In this document: positions 4,025-48,941 of the stretch, in pieces
Numbering within the stretch: the stretch's first letter is position 1
Layout: every line of letters starts with the position of its first letter
Origin: a virus
IMG/VR virus record: IMGVR_UViG_3300037483_001334
Length of the DNA stretch: 64,000 bases
Direction: 5' to 3' (one strand)
The notes under the pieces: model-generated
Databases searched by the model: none
What the model was told of the DNA's origin: nothing
Seen by the model: the letters and a program-made list of their open reading frames with translations, nothing else
Position numbers and translations under genes: made by a program

Positions 4025-6439
4025 ATGGCGTACAACTTCAACGGTCTGCGTGCGGCGATGCGCGCGAATCTCGGTCGCAAGCGCAAGAGCAGGAAGGGCA
4101 AGCGTCGCAGCCGTCCGGCTCCGGGCACCGCGGGTATTCGCCGCAACCGCCACGGTCTGATGACCGTCGTTGCGACTGGTAAGCGTCGGTCGCGTAAGCG
4201 TCGGTCGCGTCGCAACCCGGGCATCATGCAGGCAGCGGCGAACCGTCGGTCGCGTCGCAACAGCCGCCGTCGGGCTTCGCGTCGTCCGCGCCGCAACAGC
4301 CGCCGCCGGGCAAGTCGCCGGGCATCGCGTCGCAACGGTCGGCGTCGGTCGCGTCGCAACGCAGGCGCTCGTCGGCGCTCGCGCCGCAACAGCCGCCGTC
4401 GCGCCTCGCGCCGTCCGCGCCGCAACAGCCGCCGTCGCGCCTCGCGCCGTCCGCGCCGGAACAGCCGTCGCCGTGCAAGTCGCCGGGCATCGCGTCGCAA
4501 CGGTCGGCGTCGGTCGCGTCGCAACGCAGGCGCGAAGAAGCGTGCTTCGAAGAAGCGTGCTTCGAAGAAGCCGGCCGCCAAGCGTCGCAGTCGCAAGGCC
4601 GGAACGCGTAAGCGTGCCTCGAAGAAGCGCGTGAGCAAGTCGCACGTCTCCGGGATGCCGACGTTCCGTTCGTCGCACCACATGTACGGCTCGCCGCTCT
4701 TCGGTCAGATGGCGGCAAACCGCCGTCGCCACTCGCGCCGCAACAGCCGCCGTCGCCACTCGCGCCGCAATCCGATGTACTACGCAGCGGCGAACCGTCG
4801 GCGCTCGCGCCGCAACAGCCGCCGTCGTGCATCGCGCCGTCCGCGCCGCAACAGCCGCCGCCGGGCAAGTCGCCGGGCATCGCGTCGCAACGGTCGGCGT
4901 CGGTCGCGTCGCAACGCAGGCGCGCGTCGTCGCTCGCGCCGCAACAGCCACCGCCGGGCATCGCGCCGTCCGCGCCGCAACAGCCGCCGCCGTCGGTCGC
5001 GTCGCAACAGCCGCCGCCGGGCAAGCCGTCGGTCGTCGCGTCGCAACGGTCGGCGTCGGTCGCGCCGGGTTCATCCGAACTTCCTGACGGGCTCGCGCCA
5101 GACGGTTCTCTATCGTCCGGGCACGAAGCGGAAGTCGACTGTCCTGATCGGCGGTCGACGCGTGAAGGGCTACTCGCGCCGGTTCACCTTCGGCGGTGTC
5201 GCCAAGCGCGCGCGCTCGATGCGCGGCAAGTGGGGTCCTGAGCTGGCTCGACTGATCGGTCAGAAGGCCTCCTCGCGTCGGGCCTCTGCTCAGGCGCGCG
5301 GAGCGCGGGGTCCGCTCGGAGGAATCCGAGCGAACGGTCGTCGTCGGTCGAGGAAGTCTGGTTCCAGGAAGAAGTCTGGCGGTTCGCGAAAGTCCGCCGC
5401 GAGGAAGAACAGGAGGCATTCGATGAGCCGCAAGAACAAGCGCCGTAGCAAGAGGAACCCGATCTACGTCCCGCAGACCACCGGTCTGTCGAAGAACAGG
5501 CGCGGCCGTCGGCTTCGTCGGAACTTCTTCAAGCTGTACGGCAAGGACGTGATCACCGACATCGCGATGCCGGCAGGCTACGCGACCGGCGGCTTCCTGA
5601 TCGCGAACGCGCTGTCGAACCTGGCGGCGAACAGCGATCAGGTCCGCGGCGTGCTCGACGCAGGTCGTGGCGCGGACGCTGCTCTCGCGACCAAGAGCGT
5701 CGCGAACGCGGCGGTCATCGCGGGCGCTCTCGGCCTGGCCGCGTGGGCGAGCAAGTCGGGCAACAAGATGATCACGGAGAACGCGACCCCGGTCCTCACC
5801 GGCATGGGTCTCGCGCTCTTCGCCCGTCTCCTTCGCGGCACGGGCCTCGCGCCGTACCTCGGTCGCCTCGGCGAGTACGTCGAGCAGCCGATGGGCGGCT
5901 TCGGCGAGTACGTCGAGCAGCCGATGCAGGGCCTCGGCGCGTACGTCGACGACCCGAGCCACGGCATGGGTCGTGACGCGACGTACTACGCAGCGGCCGG
6001 TCTCGGTCGCGAGACGTACTACGCAGCGGCCGGCTATCACGAGGGCATCGATCCGGCCAACCAGGAGGGCGTCGACGGCCTCATGGACGTGATGGAAGCT
6101 GCTGGGCAGACGGGCACTCCCGTGATGGAAGCGGCGGCGGGCGTCGGGCAGACGTTCTACGCGGCGGCCGGTCTCGGCGGCTTCGGCGAGTACATCGAGG
6201 AGACGGACGTCGACGGCTGGTACGCCAAGAACCCCAGCTTCGTCCGTCCGGGCAGCATGACCGACGGCGGCCGCATGGAGCCCCCGTTCGCGTCCATCCA
6301 GACGCCGGTCGAGGGCGCGAAGCTCATCACGGGCGAGATGCCGTACGAGCGCAAGATTCCGTCGTCGCTCGTGACCCCCGAGGGTCGTGGCTACGCGGGC
6401 GGCGTGTTCGCGCGTCACCTCTTCGGCGGGATGTTCTAG
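4025..6439 (+). CDS. giant Arg-rich tandem-repeat protein (RRNSRRRASRRP units over ~350 aa) with a Gly/Ala-rich hydrophobic C-terminal domain ending ...RGYAGGVFARHLFGGMF
   Basis: GGAGGA RBS 9 nt before ATG 4025; the minus-strand antisense ORF is taken as artefact; its C-terminal motif is shared with the next gene. Confidence 0.5.
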   Translation: MAYNFNGLRAAMRANLGRKRKSRKGKRRSRPAPGTAGIRRNRHGLMTVVATGKRRSRKRRSRRNPGIMQAAANRRSRRNSRRRASRRPRRNSRRRASRRASRRNGRRRSRRNAGARRRSRRNSRRRASRRPRRNSRRRASRRPRRNSRRRASRRASRRNGRRRSRRNAGAKKRASKKRASKKPAAKRRSRKAGTRKRASKKRVSKSHVSGMPTFRSSHHMYGSPLFGQMAANRRRHSRRNSRRRHSRRNPMYYAAANRRRSRRNSRRRASRRPRRNSRRRASRRASRRNGRRRSRRNAGARRRSRRNSHRRASRRPRRNSRRRRSRRNSRRRASRRSSRRNGRRRSRRVHPNFLTGSRQTVLYRPGTKRKSTVLIGGRRVKGYSRRFTFGGVAKRARSMRGKWGPELARLIGQKASSRRASAQARGARGPLGGIRANGRRRSRKSGSRKKSGGSRKSAARKNRRHSMSRKNKRRSKRNPIYVPQTTGLSKNRRGRRLRRNFFKLYGKDVITDIAMPAGYATGGFLIANALSNLAANSDQVRGVLDAGRGADAALATKSVANAAVIAGALGLAAWASKSGNKMITENATPVLTGMGLALFARLLRGTGLAPYLGRLGEYVEQPMGGFGEYVEQPMQGLGAYVDDPSHGMGRDATYYAAAGLGRETYYAAAGYHEGIDPANQEGVDGLMDVMEAAGQTGTPVMEAAAGVGQTFYAAAGLGGFGEYIEETDVDGWYAKNPSFVRPGSMTDGGRMEPPFASIQTPVEGAKLITGEMPYERKIPSSLVTPEGRGYAGGVFARHLFGGMF
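4190..5075 (+). repeat. tandem 36-nt-period DNA repeats encoding RRNSRRRASRRP-type units
   Basis: cgccgcaacagccgccgtcg... repeated many times with variants, within the CDS. Confidence 0.7.
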
Positions 6440-31331: not shown

Positions 31332-32276
31332 ATGAAGTTCGATATCGGAAAGCACACGGTTTACCTCGCGCGCCACGGCAGCCGCGCGTATGGCACGAGC
31401 ACGCCCGAGTCCGATCTGGACATCAAGGGCTTCGCAGTCGCGCCGAAGTTGTACACGCTGGGCTTCGCGCACAAGTTCGAGCAGTACGAGGAGCACGGTG
31501 CAGACAGCCCCGAGGGGCCACTCGATTCTGTCGTGTACGACATCCGGAAGTTCTGCCGACTGGCGGCGGACTGCAATCCGAACATCATCGAGGTGCTGTT
31601 CATCGATGACTCGGACGTGCTGACGCTGCATCCAGCTGGGAAGCTGGTGCGCGACAACCGCGAGGCGTTCCTGTCGAAGAAGGCGCGCATCACGTTCAGC
31701 GGGTACGCCGTCAGCCAGCTGAAGCGCATCAAGACGCATCGCGGGTACCTGCTCAACCCGCCTACACACAAGCCGACGCGCGAGGAGTTCGGGCTGGCGG
31801 TCGACATGAAGATCACCGCCGACATGATGGGCGCGTTCGACAAGGTCACCGCTGGCGGAGAAGCTGTCGATCCGAACGTGATGGAGCTGGTGGCGCGCGA
31901 GAAGCGCTACAAGGCGGCGCTCGAACGGTGGAACCAGCACGAGAGCTGGAAGGCGAATCGGAACGAGAAGCGTGCGGCACTGGAAGCGGAACATTCATAC
32001 GATTCGAAGCACGCTGGACACCTCGTTCGGCTCTTGCGGATGTGTCGTGAGATCCTCACGGGCAAAGGAGTGATCGTGCGTCGGCCTGACGCGGCCGAGC
32101 TACTCGCCATCCGCAACGGCGAGTGGTCGTACGAGAAGCTCATCGAGTGGGCCGAGCGCGAGGACGGCGAGATGCGGGCGCTGTACGACGCGTCGACGCT
32201 GCCGGACGAACCGGACATGGGGAAGCTGAACGCGATCTGCGTCGAGGCGCAGGAGCGCTTCTGGAGGATGTCGTGA
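31332..32276 (+). CDS. nucleotidyltransferase (Pol-beta fold) with helical C-terminal domain
   Basis: ARHGSRAYGTSTPESDLDIKGF (hG[GS]x9-13Dh[DE]h motif). Confidence 0.5.
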   Translation: MKFDIGKHTVYLARHGSRAYGTSTPESDLDIKGFAVAPKLYTLGFAHKFEQYEEHGADSPEGPLDSVVYDIRKFCRLAADCNPNIIEVLFIDDSDVLTLHPAGKLVRDNREAFLSKKARITFSGYAVSQLKRIKTHRGYLLNPPTHKPTREEFGLAVDMKITADMMGAFDKVTAGGEAVDPNVMELVAREKRYKAALERWNQHESWKANRNEKRAALEAEHSYDSKHAGHLVRLLRMCREILTGKGVIVRRPDAAELLAIRNGEWSYEKLIEWAEREDGEMRALYDASTLPDEPDMGKLNAICVEAQERFWRMS

Positions 32277-41071: not shown

Positions 41072-41144
41072 GCCGACGTAGCCCAACGGCAGAGGCAGCC
41101 GCTTCAGAAGCGGCACAGTGGTGGTTCAAATCCACTCGTCGGCA
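41072..41144 (+). tRNA. class-I-like tRNA with Leu anticodon CAG (short variable arm), A73
   Basis: D-arm GCCCAACGGCAGAGGC; stem GCCGC/GCGGC loop TTCAGAA; T-loop TTCAAAT. Confidence 0.6.
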
Positions 41145-41149
41145 TGTTT

Positions 41150-41223
41150 GCGCAGGTAGCCCAACTGGCAGAGGCAACGGACTAAGAATCCGTCAAGTGA
41201 GGGTTCAACTCCCTCTCTGCGCA
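41150..41223 (+). tRNA. class-I-like tRNA with Leu anticodon AAG, A73
   Basis: same D-arm family; stem ACGGA/TCCGT loop CTAAGAA. Confidence 0.6.
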
Positions 41224-41228
41224 TCTCG

Positions 41229-42041: not shown

Positions 42042-42113
42042 GTCGCCGATGCTAGCACAGCATCGGAAGAGCTTGCATCCCAGGAGCTTGCGACATACTA
42101 TCGCGCAATCAAT

Positions 42114-42187
42114 GCGGACGTAGCCCAACGGCAGAGGCACCGGATTCAAGTCCCGGTCAGGTGTGGGTTCGAATCCCACGGTCCGCA
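42114..42187 (+). tRNA. class-I-like tRNA with Leu anticodon CAA, A73
   Basis: D-arm GCCCAACGGCAGAGGC; loop TTCAAGT; A·C at 31·39; T-loop TTCGAAT. Confidence 0.55.
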
Positions 42188-42208
42188 ACAACACGATTGA
42201 GGCACATC

Positions 42209-42778
42209 ATGGAGAAGAGAGCGCTGGTTCTGGTCGAGGAGAAGAGAACGCCGATCGTGATCGCCGAGAGGAAGGTTCTCGTCCTGAACATGTACTACCA
42301 GCCGGAGCGCATCGTCGACTGGCAGCGTGCCGTCTGCCTCATCTACGACGGCAAGGCAGACCTCATCGAGAGGTACGAGGGTGAGCTGCTGCGCTCTCCG
42401 AGCATGTCGATGGAGTTCCCGTCGGTCATCCGGAAGACGAAGAAGTCGCGGATGCGGAAGGTCTCGATCAAGTTCTCGCGGCAGAACGTGCTGCTGCGTG
42501 ACGGGAACACCTGTCAGTACTGCCAGGTGCCCTTCGAGCCGAGGGAGCTGAACTACGATCACGTCCTTCCCAGGTCGCGCAAAGGCAAGACCGAGTGGGA
42601 CAACATCGTGATGTCCTGCTACCCGTGCAACGAAAAGAAGGGCGACAGAACGCCGGCCGAGGCCAAGATGCAGCTGAAGCGCGCGCCGCGAAAGCCCGAC
42701 TGGCTTCCCATCGTCAGCAAGCGCTTCGACCTCGGCGCGGTGCCGGAGACCTGGCGGCCGTACCTGGTCGCGGCATGA
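42209..42778 (+). CDS. HNH endonuclease (McrA-like)
   Basis: CQYCQVPFEPRELNYDHVLPRSRKGKTEWDNIVMSCYPCNEKKG. Confidence 0.75.
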   Translation: MEKRALVLVEEKRTPIVIAERKVLVLNMYYQPERIVDWQRAVCLIYDGKADLIERYEGELLRSPSMSMEFPSVIRKTKKSRMRKVSIKFSRQNVLLRDGNTCQYCQVPFEPRELNYDHVLPRSRKGKTEWDNIVMSCYPCNEKKGDRTPAEAKMQLKRAPRKPDWLPIVSKRFDLGAVPETWRPYLVAA

Positions 42779-45409: not shown

Positions 45410-46117
45410 ATGGGTAAGCGCGTGTGGATCGAGCTGGCTCCGCTTGTTGCGTCTGGGCCCGTAGATCCGATGACCGGGATGGTATCGGTCGAGCCGTACA
45501 CGTGGACGGCGCGACTGTCGTGTGGCCACGGCAAGCCGCACGCCGTGTCCGTATTCGCATCGTCTGGCGATCCGATCTGGTGTGACGAGTGCGATGGCAC
45601 CTGCCTCGCTTGCGGCGCGCCAGCTACGACTTGTGTCGACAACACGATCGACTGGGGCGAAGCCTGCGAGACGTGTGCGGCCTTGCCCAAGAAGACCTGG
45701 CCAGCGCGAGTTGAGGCCCATCGCTTCAACATCATGTCGGACGAAGAGCACCTCGACGTGGCTGCGCACTTCGCCAAAGTCGGCATGAGCTACGAGCGCA
45801 AGGCCGCGGACCGAAAGGGCAAGTTCTGGGATGAGCCGCGGAAGTCGCCGCTGTGGTGGACGCATACGCGTGATGGAACAGCAGCAAGCGCGAAAGAGAT
45901 GTTTGCGAAGAGCGCGATGCACTTCATCGCGGCGTTCGTGAGTGAGCGTCCGGCGTACGCGCACGACACTCGTGCCATCGGAGCGTGTGTCGTCTGCCAG
46001 CGCATCGTGACAGGGTCCGTGCCGGCGGTGCTGGTCGACAACCGCAGGAGCGGGTATGGTGGGCGAGTCGCTCACCTCATGTGCTGGGAAGAGAAGGGTG
46101 CGAAATGGAAAGCGTGA
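45410..46117 (+). CDS. Cys-rich hypothetical protein
   Basis: ORF 235 aa. Confidence 0.4.
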   Translation: MGKRVWIELAPLVASGPVDPMTGMVSVEPYTWTARLSCGHGKPHAVSVFASSGDPIWCDECDGTCLACGAPATTCVDNTIDWGEACETCAALPKKTWPARVEAHRFNIMSDEEHLDVAAHFAKVGMSYERKAADRKGKFWDEPRKSPLWWTHTRDGTAASAKEMFAKSAMHFIAAFVSERPAYAHDTRAIGACVVCQRIVTGSVPAVLVDNRRSGYGGRVAHLMCWEEKGAKWKA

Positions 46118-46789
46118 TCGTAGAGATTCGAGCTGGCGAAGGTGGCGCAGACGCCAAGGACTTGGTCCGCGAGCAGTTCGGCGTGTACGCCCGGCTGATG
46201 GAGCGGAGGGGTCTTTGACTTCGCTCTCGTAGATGAGCGCAGCGGCTTCCTCTCGTTCCAAGCGAGCGGCAAGGGAGCGCGTGAGACGTTCTCGCGAGAG
46301 TCAGGAGGGCACCGATGGCAGCGCGTGCCGCCCTCTGAGAAGCGTGGCCGCGTTCAGACATCGACGGTGACCGTTGCGGTGCTGGAAGAGCCGAAGGCGG
46401 CTGCGGTTCAGATCGAAGAGCGCGACGTCGAGTGGTCGACGTGCCGTGGCTCTGGTGCCGGAGGTCAGCATCGGAACGTCACCAACAGCGCGGTGCAGAT
46501 GGTGCACCTCCCGACCGGGCTTCGAGTGCGCGTCGAGAACGAGCGCTCGCAGCATGCGAACCGTGAGATCGCCCTGAGGATCTTGCGCGCGCGCATCCAC
46601 GAGCAGCGCGAGACCGCGAGCACGGCGGCACGGTCAGACAGTCGCCGGCAGCAAGTCGGCAGCGGTGAGCGCGCGGACAAGGTGCGGACGATCCGCGCAC
46701 AGGACGGACAGGTAACCGATCACCGATCCGGACAGCAAATCCGATACAAGGACTACGTCCGAGGAAACTGGGACGGCTTGTTCAGATAA
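46105..46789 (+). CDS. truncated class-I peptide chain release factor (RF1-like domains 2-4 with GGQ; tripeptide-motif position reads PPS) requiring a +1 programmed frameshift at CUU UGA C (46213-46219)
   Basis: Frame 0 (46105-46218) gives MESVIVEIRAGEGGADAKDLVREQFGVYARLMERRGL*. The +1 frame from 46217 continues the homology (ESGGHRWQRVPPSEKRGRVQTSTVTVAVLEE...GSGAGGQHRN...GQVTDHR) to 46789. GGAGG lies 3 nt upstream of CTT, as in prfB. Confidence 0.7.
46205..46219 (+). promoter_or_regulatory. prfB-type +1 frameshift element: internal Shine–Dalgarno GGAGG, 3-nt spacer, CUU UGA C
   Basis: cggaGGAGGggtCTTTGAC. Confidence 0.65.
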
Positions 46790-46876
46790 CGCTTGCACAG
46801 CGTTTCGCAGCATGCGACAGTCTTTTCCCGGTCGGTCAGCCGTTCGCAAGGACGGCTGGCCACCGGGTGCGCCTCT

Positions 46877-46960
46877 GGAGGGTGAAGCTACACGGCGTAG
46901 CGCGGGCCTTGAAAACCCGGTCTGTGGTAACCCCACGGGGTTCGAATCCTCCGCCCTCCG
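46877..46960 (+). tRNA. tRNA-Ser(TGA), type II, G73
   Basis: loop CTTGAAA; long variable arm TGTGG-TAACC-CCACG; C·A at 31·39. Confidence 0.6.
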
Positions 46961-47077: not shown

Positions 47078-47191
47078 TGTGCTGCACACCGGGTAGGCTC
47101 TAGTAGGCCTGTGCCGGTCGGTAGTAGGCGGCGTGCTAGCGCTGTGTACTGTCTGGGTCATACGGTTCGATTCCCCGTGCAGCCACCTTTT
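47078..47191 (+). ncRNA. YrlA-like RNA candidate (Ro60-associated tRNA mimic): terminal 7-bp stem GCTGCAC/GTGCAGC enclosing a tRNA-like T-arm, then CCACCTTTTCC
   Basis: T-loop GGTTCGATTCC but no tRNA acceptor; repeated GTAGTAGGC motifs; immediately upstream of the Ro60 gene. Confidence 0.35.
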
Positions 47192-47234
47192 CCCTGACAG
47201 CTGGGTTGTCGGGTTGTTCGTCTGGGAGGTTCCG

Positions 47235-48941
47235 ATGTCTGACTATGCTGCGCATCTGGGCGATGCGAAGAAGAAGGCTGTTTCTGTCCGCGAGGACGCT
47301 CCGCAGTCGGCCAAGGCCGACGCGCGTCAGGTCAAGAACGCGGCCGGCGGCTTCGCGTTCGAGGTCGACGACTGGAAGCGTCTCGATCGGTTCCTCATCC
47401 TGGGAGCCGAGGGCGGCACGTTCCATGTGGGCGAGCAGAAGCTCGTGCGCGAGGGCGCGGGTGCACTGGAGCGCTGCCTGAAGGACGACGCGAGCGCGGC
47501 GATCGAGCACATCGCGGCGATCAGCGAGTCGGGCCGCGCGCCGAAGAACGATCCTGCGATCTTCGCACTCGCCGTCGCAGCGTCACACGCAGACCCGGTC
47601 GTGCGGCGCCTCGCACTGGCTGCGCTCCCGCGCGTCTGCCGGATCGGCACGCACATCTTCCAGTTCGCGGAGCAGGTCCAGCAGCTTCGCGGCTGGGGCG
47701 CTGGCCTCCGGCGTGCGGTCGGCGCGTGGTACACGAGCAAGGAGGGTGGCGACCTTGCCTACCAGCTGGTGAAGTACCAGCAGCGCGGCGGTGTGTCGCA
47801 TCGCGATCTGCTCCGACTGTCGCACCCGAAGTCGAAGGATCCGATCGTGCAGGCTATCCTGCGGTGGACCATCGCGGGCTCGTCGGGCCTCGGCGAGCGC
47901 AGCGTCAAGCGCAAGCAGCAGGAGGCGGGCGTCTCGTACGAGGCGGTCGCGGCTGGCGCGCTGCCGAAGGTCATCGAGGGCTTCGAGCGCGTGAAGCTCG
48001 CAACGACGCCCGAGGAGTGTGCCGCTCTCGTGCGCGAGTACAACCTCACGCACGAGATGGTGCCGTCTGAGCAGCAGAAGCACGCCGTCGTCTGGGACGC
48101 GCTCCTTCAGCGCATGCCGATGCACGCGATGGTGCGGAACCTGGGCCGGATGACGGCGAACGGCCTGCTCGTTCCGGGCTCGGACGCGGCGAAGCACGTC
48201 GTGAAGCAGCTGAAGAACGAGGCGGCGATCAAGAAGTCGCGAATGCACCCGCTCGCGGTACTGATGGCACTTCGCACATACGCGTCGGGCCATGGCGAGA
48301 AGGGCAAGCTGACCTGGACGGCCGTGAAGCCGATCATCGACGCACTCGATGACGCGTTCTATGCTGCGTTCGAGACCGTCGAGCCCACGGGCAAGAGCAT
48401 CATGCTCGCGCTCGACGTGTCGGGCTCGATGGCTGGCAGCCAGGTTGCCGGCACGTCGTTGACCGCGCGCGAGGCCGTTGCCTGCATGGCGATGGTCACG
48501 GCTCGTCGCGAGCCGGACTACGACCTCGTGGGCTTCACGGCGGGCGGCTCCGGCTATGGCGGCCGCTGGGGCGGCTCGGCGTCGGGTCTCTCTCCCGTCG
48601 CGATCACGGCGAAGACGGCGCTGTCGGACGCGTGCAAGATCATGGAGCGCATGTCCATGGGCGGCACCGACTGTGCGCTTCCCATGCTTCACGCGCTCGG
48701 CAAGAAGCAGAAGGTTGAGGCCTTTTGCGTCTACACCGACAACGAGACCTGGGCGGGCGCCGTGCACCCGTTCAAGGCGATCAAGCAGTATCGTGAGCAG
48801 ATGGGCATCCCCGCGAAGCTCGTCGTCGTCGGCACGGAAGCGTCGCCGTTCACCATTGCCGATCCGTCGGACGCCGGCATGCTTGATGTCGTCGGCTTCG
48901 ACTCCGGCGCCCCCGCAGTCATCGCGGACTTCATCCGCTGA
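47235..48941 (+). CDS. rsr: Ro60 (Ro sixty-related, Rsr) orthologue: TROVE domain + C-terminal vWA/MIDAS
   Basis: Long helical-repeat N-terminal region; DVSGSM MIDAS motif; RBS GGGAGG 6 nt upstream. Confidence 0.75.
   Translation: MSDYAAHLGDAKKKAVSVREDAPQSAKADARQVKNAAGGFAFEVDDWKRLDRFLILGAEGGTFHVGEQKLVREGAGALERCLKDDASAAIEHIAAISESGRAPKNDPAIFALAVAASHADPVVRRLALAALPRVCRIGTHIFQFAEQVQQLRGWGAGLRRAVGAWYTSKEGGDLAYQLVKYQQRGGVSHRDLLRLSHPKSKDPIVQAILRWTIAGSSGLGERSVKRKQQEAGVSYEAVAAGALPKVIEGFERVKLATTPEECAALVREYNLTHEMVPSEQQKHAVVWDALLQRMPMHAMVRNLGRMTANGLLVPGSDAAKHVVKQLKNEAAIKKSRMHPLAVLMALRTYASGHGEKGKLTWTAVKPIIDALDDAFYAAFETVEPTGKSIMLALDVSGSMAGSQVAGTSLTAREAVACMAMVTARREPDYDLVGFTAGGSGYGGRWGGSASGLSPVAITAKTALSDACKIMERMSMGGTDCALPMLHALGKKQKVEAFCVYTDNETWAGAVHPFKAIKQYREQMGIPAKLVVVGTEASPFTIADPSDAGMLDVVGFDSGAPAVIADFIR

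Follow-up and report, generated by a model that had tools for sequence, protein, structure and literature searches.

The +1 frameshift of prfB is a textbook case of recoding. Its site lies near codon 26, in domain 1 of the protein, and combines a CUU codon in the ribosomal P site, a stop that lies in frame and occupies the A site, a C after the stop and a Shine-Dalgarno (SD)-like element 3 nucleotides (nt) upstream (PMC12421855, PMC3711429). A 2025 survey of more than 12,000 genomes reported no programmed frameshift in the genes for release factor (RF) 1 (prfA), and TAG at 0 of 8,164 prfB sites (PMC12421855). Here we describe an RF gene in 64,000 nt of viral DNA (IMG/VR record IMGVR_UViG_3300037483_001334; this whole stretch is called the window below) that has each of these site elements in common with prfB, together with the +1 direction of the shift and its setting in a class-I RF gene, but that is RF1-like rather than RF2-like and carries the site at codon 37/38, in domain 2, after the long helix and before strand 2. 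Sequence comparisons and a structure model support the view that the gene encodes a domain-1-less, RF1-like class-I factor needing a prfB-type +1 shift inside domain 2, in agreement with a first-pass annotation that had been made from the letters of the sequence.

The gene begins with an open reading frame of 37 codons (ORF0) that opens at ATG 46105, reads MESVIVEIRAGEGGADAKDLVREQFGVYARLMERRGL and is closed by the TGA at 46216-46218 (Table 1). The last sense codon of ORF0, CTT (46213-46215), is separated from an upstream GGAGG by the spacer GGT (46210-46212), and the TGA is followed by C at 46219; these coordinates bear out the annotated 37-codon frame ending in CUU UGA C with GGAGG at 3-nt spacing. 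From 46217 the +1 frame is open for 190 codons to the TAA at 46787-46789, which gives a joined protein of 227 amino acids (aa), and its translation includes HRWQRVPPSEKRGRVQTSTVTVAV, ESGGHRWQRVPPSEKRGRVQTSTVTVAV, GGQ and GSGERADKVRTIRAQDGQVTDHR (the GSGERADKVRT...VTDHR C-terminus). That RF homology runs on without a gap in the +1 frame through GGQ to the C-terminus was likewise found, both in the translation and in the alignment to T. maritima RF1, which crosses residues 37/38 without a break. The slippery CTT is a minor Leu codon, accounting for 8.4% of the Leu codons in the genes of the window. On the record, the gene is represented (JGI gene caller) by nothing more than a fragment of 140 aa named 'peptide chain release factor 1' (P0016, 100% identical), and ORF finders give a 154-aa ORF starting at GTG 46325.

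Table 1. Positions of the elements of the frameshifted release-factor gene, counted from the first letter of the window.
Feature	Position	Strand	Basis and remarks
ORF0, codons 1-37 of the release-factor homologue	46105..46215	+	Translation; start and sequence kept in relatives
SD-like GGAGG, putative stimulator of the +1 shift	46205..46209	+	Sequence; 3 nt 5' of the slippery codon
Shift site CUU UGA C	46213..46219	+	P-site Leu codon, which would re-pair on UUU; UGA as A-site stop; C weakens the termination context
+1-frame part, residues 38-227 and TAA	46217..46789	+	Rest of domain 2/4, decoding loop, GGQ domain 3; translation, Pfam RF-1 and PCRF
P-P-S, in the decoding loop where RF1 has P-x-T	46328..46336	+	Alignment with E. 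coli RF1
GGQ peptidyl-tRNA hydrolysis motif	46460..46468	+	Translation; kept in relatives

To place this arrangement in its family, relatives were gathered from IMG/VR (45 loci), GTDB species genomes (22) and JGI/ENA metagenomes (80); 152 loci were classified by whether they require a +1 shift at the codon that corresponds to residue 37/38, and identical sequences were then removed. A +1 shift is needed at this same codon in 119 of the 152 loci by automatic classification and in five more by eye, which leaves 97 unique nucleotide sequences reaching down to approximately 40% amino-acid identity. So many homologues with one cassette at one codon are far more than chance would give. Among these 97, the P-site codon is CTT in 96 and TTT in one, the next base is T in every case, and the stop at the shift site is TGA in 72 (74%), TAG in 22 (23%) and TAA in 3 (3%), followed by C in 77. 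GGAGG stands at the exact 3-nt spacing from CTT in 53 and is represented by GGAG or GAGG at 3-4 nt in another 14, and most of the 97 carry CGGAGG at -12 to -7. By comparison, GGAGG is missing from the independently in-frame homologues L019, L047, L048, L050, L051, L107 and L129. In an annotated phage collection, a megablast search of the locus against 50,697 phage records gave no match, where tblastn found a relative, LR745208.1; this 485-kb uncultured phage, the best match in that collection (approximately 51% identity), is matched in two pieces and holds the identical 17-nt string GCGGAGGGGTCTTTGAC.

A frame break of this kind could also be a sequencing or assembly indel or the mark of a decaying pseudogene, and the locus does rest on a single contig that the JGI annotation represents only by the 140-aa fragment. 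The 97 unique sequences, however, come from independent samples and assemblers and break at the same codon with a conserved cassette, which persists while identity drops to the level given above, and both halves of the gene are under frame-specific purifying selection. As judged from the relatives, error or decay is effectively refuted, and we give it a negligible probability.

This selection is visible in a nucleotide alignment of 19 relatives, in which mean column entropy by position modulo three is 0.53/0.40/1.42 before the cassette and 1.52/0.63/0.41 after it, the cassette itself being invariant. The entropy peak thus moves from the third position of frame 0 to that of the +1 frame, which means that the wobble position is displaced by one base where the cassette stands. 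Selection acts on a coding frame that is offset by +1 from the cassette onwards, and this cassette bears every sequence element of the prfB site. Transcriptional slippage was considered as another source of the change of frame and rejected, as the T run is only three bases long and the conserved elements are those of ribosomal +1 shifting.

It is also conceivable that no frameshift occurs, ORF0 coding for a small peptide and the downstream part starting internally as a truncated factor. The 154-aa ORF from GTG 46325 would suit such a start, as would the chance +1-frame start codons that lie upstream of the junction in some relatives (e.g., P0003). In the window, however, the +1 frame is not open before 46199, and from there up to GTG 46325, which is residue 74 of the joined protein, it contains no ATG, GTG or TTG; residues 38-73, which are strongly conserved in the family and include the near-invariant ESGGHRWQR, are therefore translatable here only by ribosomes coming from ORF0. 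Moreover, the strand and the long helix provided by ORF0 are integral to domain 2 in the structure model described below, and in-frame homologues code both parts as one chain. An internal start in place of a shift is thus very improbable.

Profile searches of the joined protein matched both Pfam domains expected of such a factor, RF-1 over its whole length (E 3.7e-30) and PCRF at profile positions 101-194 of 194 only (E 4.9e-19). Because the PCRF match is limited to these positions, domain 1 is absent, in line with the first-pass annotation, and RF1 alignments of the joined protein accordingly start at RF1 residues 87-111. Most relatives likewise have little or no open frame ahead of the start, 1-56 codons in each case with the exception of L017, which has 128. 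Directly 5' of the gene, and overlapping its start, lies a gene (45410-46117) with no Pfam or PHROG match, so domain 1 is not provided by this neighbour.

Among release-factor classes RF1 is the nearest by sequence and by predicted fold, as the annotation had read from the decoding region in spite of its PPS. The NCBIfam models give the joined protein 212 bits for RF1, 140 for RF2, 84 for PrfH and 32 for ArfB, all under their curated cut-offs: the RF1 equivalog models TIGR00019 and NF001859 score 212.3 against 400 and 208.9 against 423.25, the RF2 model TIGR00020 140 against 370 (the loop being PPS, not SPF), the PrfH model TIGR03072 84.3 against 166.65, and the ArfB model 32 against 100, this last over the GGQ region only. 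A sequence search of the PDB ranks RF1 first as well (163 bits, E 7e-47), ahead of RF2 (95) and PrfH (59). An AlphaFold2 model was built from an alignment of the joined protein of the window with 56 full-length homologues; it has a mean predicted local distance difference test score of 84.2 and shows a strand at residues 3-10, a long helix at 15-34 and the junction in the loop before a strand at 38-45. ORF0 would thereby account for the first strand of domain 2 and for its long helix, the conserved R-A-G-E-G-G-x-D-A segment among them, and the shift site would fall inside domain 2, where it had been placed from the sequence. By Foldseek the model is closest to ribosome-bound RF1 (template modelling (TM) score 0.89-0.90, 2.0-2.1 Å), followed by ribosome-bound RF2 (0.76-0.84) and PrfH (0.65).

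In sequence and fold RF1 (prfA) is the best match, and common to it and the family are GGQ, the architecture of domains 2, 3 and 4 and, in the decoding loop, the Q and T-S positions; the loop is of a P-x-T-like type whose third position varies. It differs from RF1 in the loss of domain 1, the part that interacts with RF3 and the L11 stalk, in small deletions in domain 2, in the signature HRWQR where RF1 has HRVQR, and in the variable third position of the tripeptide (T, N or S). Within the decoding loop of the window protein the Q, P, G-R and T-S of E. coli RF1 are kept and Ser replaces the Thr of P-x-T; among 96 frameshifted members, 52 have T at this third position, 34 have N, 3 have S and one each has H and G, the remaining 5 having a loop deletion. 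These deletions remove four residues (5 of the 96 relatives, or 6 with duplicates; e.g., L001 and L014/L015). GGQ is invariant in 57 aligned sequences and in every motif variant of the frameshifted relatives. Sequence and model together identify the product as a class-I release factor of the RF1 type that has domains 2, 3 and 4 and lacks domain 1.

The loss of domain 1 is shared with PrfH (RF-H), a class-I RF paralogue of approximately 200-230 aa that combines a domain of the codon-recognition type with GGQ, and raises the question of whether the product is instead a ribosome-rescue factor, PrfH- or ArfB-like, that serves stalled or damaged ribosomes in a module countering RNA damage. A Ro60/TROVE gene adjoins the RF gene, RlaP and tRNA arrays are nearby, the RF-Ro60 adjacency recurs in other loci with a Ro60 match (L075, L076, L088 and L089), and the decoding-loop deletions of a few relatives point the same way. 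On the other hand, the protein is far nearer to RF1 than to PrfH or ArfB in bit score, and than to PrfH in fold, most members keep the elements that read stop codons, and the Ro60 adjacency is confined to a small clade. Besides its weak similarity, PrfH differs in its decoding region and is not known to need a frameshift, and the RtcB-family partner that always precedes prfH in the same orientation is not to be found in the upstream gene, which has no Pfam match. ArfB and ICT1 consist of GGQ and a basic C-terminal tail with no codon-recognition domain, whereas the window protein has domain 2/4 and no ArfB-type tail. We therefore regard a role in rescue as unlikely.

The history of the cassette can be followed in relatives that do without it. 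The 120 best database clusters divide into 57 that are full-length and 63 that start near residue 37, about half of them being in-frame. At the junction the in-frame proteins read ...ARRGLDVELV..., coded as CGA AGA GGT CTC GAC without an SD-like purine run, and their RRGLD confirms the predicted trans-frame Leu-Asp. Two in-frame loci resemble the cassette itself less one base. The first, L152 (65-751, P0001; 72% identical to the window protein), has GAG CGG AGG GTC TTT GAC, read as RRVFD, which is the TGA cassette minus one G; the second, L095 (3001-3678), has CGG AGG GTC TTT AGC, read as RRVFS, the TAG cassette minus one G. On the evidence of their sequences, the two directly record the loss of the frameshift, from a TGA-type and a TAG-type ancestor respectively. 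In a neighbour-joining (NJ) tree built from 203 sequences, the deepest branches of the family belong to frameshifted lineages, and in-frame members are nested among these again and again, which requires at least 24 changes of state; resolution is poor, the internal branches being very short, and Fitch parsimony makes the root in-frame only because of the outgroups. On these sequences, the cassette looks ancestral to most of the family and repeatedly lost via a one-base deletion.

A link to stop-codon recoding is seen only among in-frame relatives, a set of which have their RF gene interrupted, once or twice, by a TGA in frame where a hydrophobic or aromatic residue would be expected. They lie at approximately 3120-3150 in L029, L030, L033, L036, L037, L040, L044, L045 and L062, and at 967-969 in L090, where the TGA is exactly at the shift position (AAG GGG TAT TGA CTG). 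In a homologue-based check of the flanking genes of L036, L037 and L040, TGA aligns to Trp, giving modest support for TGA = Trp; a comparison of ORF coverage under codes 11, 4 and 15 was crude and gave no decision on recoding. Taken by their sequences, these relatives are probably TGA=Trp phages carrying an RF1-type factor, such as the one mentioned for recoded (Jade) phages in the text of Borges et al. Regulated readthrough, entertained as a second recoding solution in the TGA-bearing relatives, was dropped, these TGAs now being taken to encode Trp in the usual manner of a recoded phage. Ribosomes in such a phage would not be halted by a UGA at the shift site, in keeping with the lack of the cassette in these relatives.

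As for how the gene is expressed, we consider it likely, by analogy with prfB and from the sequence, that the locus encodes one 227-aa RF1-type factor via programmed +1 frameshifting, and that this adds to the phage's capacity for termination at UAA and UAG. Ribosomes would start at ATG 46105, translate 37 codons and pause with peptidyl-tRNA-Leu on CUU in the P site and the poorly read UGA-C in the A site, while the GGAGG three bases upstream would pair with the anti-SD sequence of 16S rRNA. The tRNA-Leu would then re-pair on UUU and GAC (Asp) would be decoded next, giving ...ERRGL-DFALVDE...; termination at the shift site would yield only a 37-aa fragment. The product would recognise UAA and UAG and release the peptide without dependence on RF3, and so might add RF1-type termination capacity within a phage translation module of tRNA arrays. 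A truncated RF1 without domain 1 is reported still to read stop codons and release peptide, but without stimulation by RF3 (Mora et al. 2003, as cited in PMC1586002). RF abundance is described as following the usage of the cognate stop codon (PMC12421855), and the genes of the window end in TGA in 44 cases, TAG in 21 and TAA in 6.

Several points weigh against this account. Its RF1-type specificity is made less certain by the Ser of the window protein at the P-x-T position and by the Asn found there in about a third of the family, and the decoding-loop deletions hint, at the level of sequence, that function is less tied to stop codons in some members. Shifting of the prfB type reaches an efficiency of only 6.6% in M. 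smegmatis, compared with 52.7% in B. subtilis, and high-GC genomes tend to lack the prfB motif (PMC12421855); the window has a GC content of 64% and contains an actinophage-type domain, L5 gp82. Lastly, with approximately half of the database homologues in-frame, the frameshift is dispensable for function, and it may have little regulatory meaning.

Whether the cassette regulates is a separate matter. Since the shift competes with termination, its yield should rise when the stop at the site is read slowly, and in the window, with its UGA site, synthesis should be inversely coupled to the activity of host RF2. This UGA member may plausibly sense host RF2, but such sensing does not extend as a rule across the family. 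The first-pass annotation also called the cassette autoregulatory, and this part of it is not supported: members with an RF1-type loop have TGA, TAG or TAA at the site, and identical loops are found on TGA and TAG sites, as in the case of GGHRWQRVPPTEKRGRVQTSTVTVAV. With an RF1-like loop whichever stop stands at the site, output would more probably follow the host's capacity to terminate at that stop than a prfB-like loop of self-control.

Such autoregulation would have the product read the stop at its own shift site, here UGA, and so limit its own synthesis. The architecture of the cassette is the same as in prfB, and, should the factor have RF1 specificity, the 22 of 97 members with a TAG site would control their own synthesis; in these, self-regulation is conceivable. 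Asn at the P-x-T position is commoner among the TGA-type members (30 of 72, versus 3 of 22 with TAG sites; Fisher p = 0.02, ignoring phylogeny) and could mean relaxed reading of the second stop-codon base; we treat this association as a lead for altered specificity, nothing more, and do not rely on it. Against self-control stand the decoding loop, which is RF1-like and not SPF, and the interchangeability of the stop: prfB, where self-control holds, never has TAG in 8,164 genomes (PMC12421855), in contrast to the 23% of this family, in which the decoding loop is not matched to the stop of the site, so that self-regulation is not implied. True prfB-style autoregulation is accordingly, in our estimate, quite improbable.

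The choice of stop offers a different clue. TAA is read by both RFs. At the shift site TGA, TAG and TAA make up 74, 23 and 3%, compared with 52, 24 and 24% in flanking genes; the difference lies mainly in TAA, which is rarer at the site, and its depletion fits selection for a slowly read stop rather than for a product-specific one. One may speculate, and we rate the idea as unlikely, that the family is a termination-capacity sensor that cross-regulates RF classes, in which RF1-type output would be set by slowness at UGA (read by RF2) or at UAG (read by RF1), P-P-N variants, with a relaxed reading of the second base, could also read UGA, and the cassette would be a second, independently placed CUU-stop shift spread by large phages in a portable translation module.

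It is somewhat easier to imagine, if still rather unlikely, that the cassette has no regulatory role at all: a one-base insertion in the R-R-G-L-D stretch would have created an efficient shift site, and selection would only maintain expression. The in-frame CGA AGA GGT CTC GAC indeed lies a single insertion from the cassette, in-frame genes account for half of the database homologues, and the losses are many, as seen in the state changes of the NJ tree and the two single-G-deletion fossils. Yet the cassette persists in lineages approximately 40% identical though a one-base deletion can remove it, and the avoidance of TAA and preference for C after the stop are as expected if the balance of termination and shift matters.

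In the window the RF gene lies within a run of 30 tRNA genes (34.8-49.8 kb). It is followed on its 3' side by a tRNA-like element, a tRNA-Glu and a Ro60/TROVE-vWA gene. The protein of this last gene, at 47133-48941 (+), is recognised by Pfam in both parts (E 2e-45 and 4.5e-59), and 15 kb upstream of the RF gene, at 31332-32276 (+), is an RlaP nucleotidyltransferase of the RNA-repair pathway. The tRNA-like element at 46876-46960 (+), between the RF gene and tRNA-Glu(CUC), was missed by ARAGORN and matches Rfam tRNA-Sec below threshold (37.7 bits, E 1.3e-5); with a 9-bp acceptor stem, a 6-bp D stem, a long variable arm and the anticodon UGA (Ser codon UCA), it may be an 'allo-tRNA'-like serine tRNA. 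An HNH endonuclease gene (42161-42778, +) also lies inside the tRNA region, and 16 other loci have a homologue of it (37-50% identity) no more than 3 kb from their RF gene.

All three 'tRNA-Leu' genes of the window (41072-41225 and 42113-42189, +) are class-I sized, at 73-77 nt, without a long variable arm, and tRNA-Leu(AAG) is cognate to the slippery CUU; on UUU it would form two Watson-Crick pairs and one G-U pair. In L032, which has the sole TTT TAG shift site, the tRNA at 4731-4807, approximately 1 kb 3' of the RF gene, has the CUA anticodon of an amber suppressor and is labelled 'Pyl' by ARAGORN. Homologous tRNAs with anticodon loops of 8-9 nt (ARAGORN 'uaag') occur in L012 (507-584), L014 (1448-1522) and L009 (980-1057), 1.5-2.5 kb upstream of the frameshifted RF genes. 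Enlarged anticodon loops are typical of +1 frameshift-suppressor tRNAs.

The carriers of the family in IMG/VR are mostly large contigs of 80-480 kb (L028 456 kb, L008 424 kb, L026 369 kb), and in-frame members are also present in phage-like contigs of 232 kb and 764 kb without Pfam-annotated genes. In 20 of the 33 phage loci that were scanned, counting L058 and L052, the RF gene has tRNA genes no more than 3 kb away, with as many as 24 in an array, and the genes upstream of it vary among relatives. The window itself carries the actinophage-type domain L5 gp82. Scans of its large ORFs with PHROG and Pfam gave few matches and no hallmark virion gene, so its assignment to a phage rests on the tRNA array, the density of unmatched ORFs and the IMG/VR relatives.

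Frameshifted copies are found in Myxococcota genomes as well, at a host-like GC of 0.69-0.72 and with neighbours that include a D-Tyr-tRNA deacylase. In three of these genomes, L057, L059 and L070 (3001-3700), a gene for a large TPR protein stands directly upstream of the frameshifted RF gene, which, in L057 (Nannocystaceae ST9, isolate genome JBLWFJ010000001.1), is on a 6.98-Mb contig; the TPR linkage suggests a stable cellular locus and not a prophage. Two other loci assigned to bacterial metagenome-assembled genomes look different. L058 (OZ245758.1, 'Polyangiales chromosome') has 17 tRNA genes round the RF gene and L052 has 11, both with the same HNH endonuclease, and the locus of L058 has a GC of 0.59, compared with 0.67-0.72 in the other Myxococcota loci. 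L058 and L052 are probably phage-derived, as prophages or through a binning artefact.

Phage-borne RF1 and RF2 genes in translation modules with tRNAs have been reported from huge and recoded phages in the texts of Al-Shayeb 2020 and Borges 2021, and the locus described here shares this setting. Unlike the recoded phages, the phage of the window keeps the standard code, as seen in its long ORFs and in the use of TGA for 62% of its gene stops. Term searches found no mention of a frameshift in the main text of the Borges 2021 preprint and none of a loss of domain 1 in the main texts of Al-Shayeb 2020 and Borges 2021, the former for the terms 'release factor' and 'termination' only. Neither the family nor a frameshift in an RF1-type gene was found in the literature searched, which included the 2025 prfB survey, the GeneTack census, PRFect, a 2016 recoding review and a 2019 review of release-factor evolution, most subscription-journal papers being outside its coverage. 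The annotation's remark that no truncated phage-borne RF of this hybrid layout is known stands to that extent, but the layout is not specific to phages, given the frameshifted copies in Myxococcota chromosomes. What appears to be new, and is apparently undescribed, is the setting of a known +1 cassette: the gene family is a new one for it, as is the point in the protein at which it stands, and the identity of its stop is unconstrained.

The finding also has consequences for annotation, as gene callers currently truncate or split the genes of this family. The presence of the same cassette in another RF lineage, at another position and with interchangeable stops, indicates that the shifting mechanism is separable from the logic of autoregulation, and the roughly one hundred natural sequence variants offer material for the study of what a +1 site requires. 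The family defines a compact, three-domain RF1 that is carried by large phages and some myxobacteria, and it bears on how phages manage termination and on termination that is independent of RF3.

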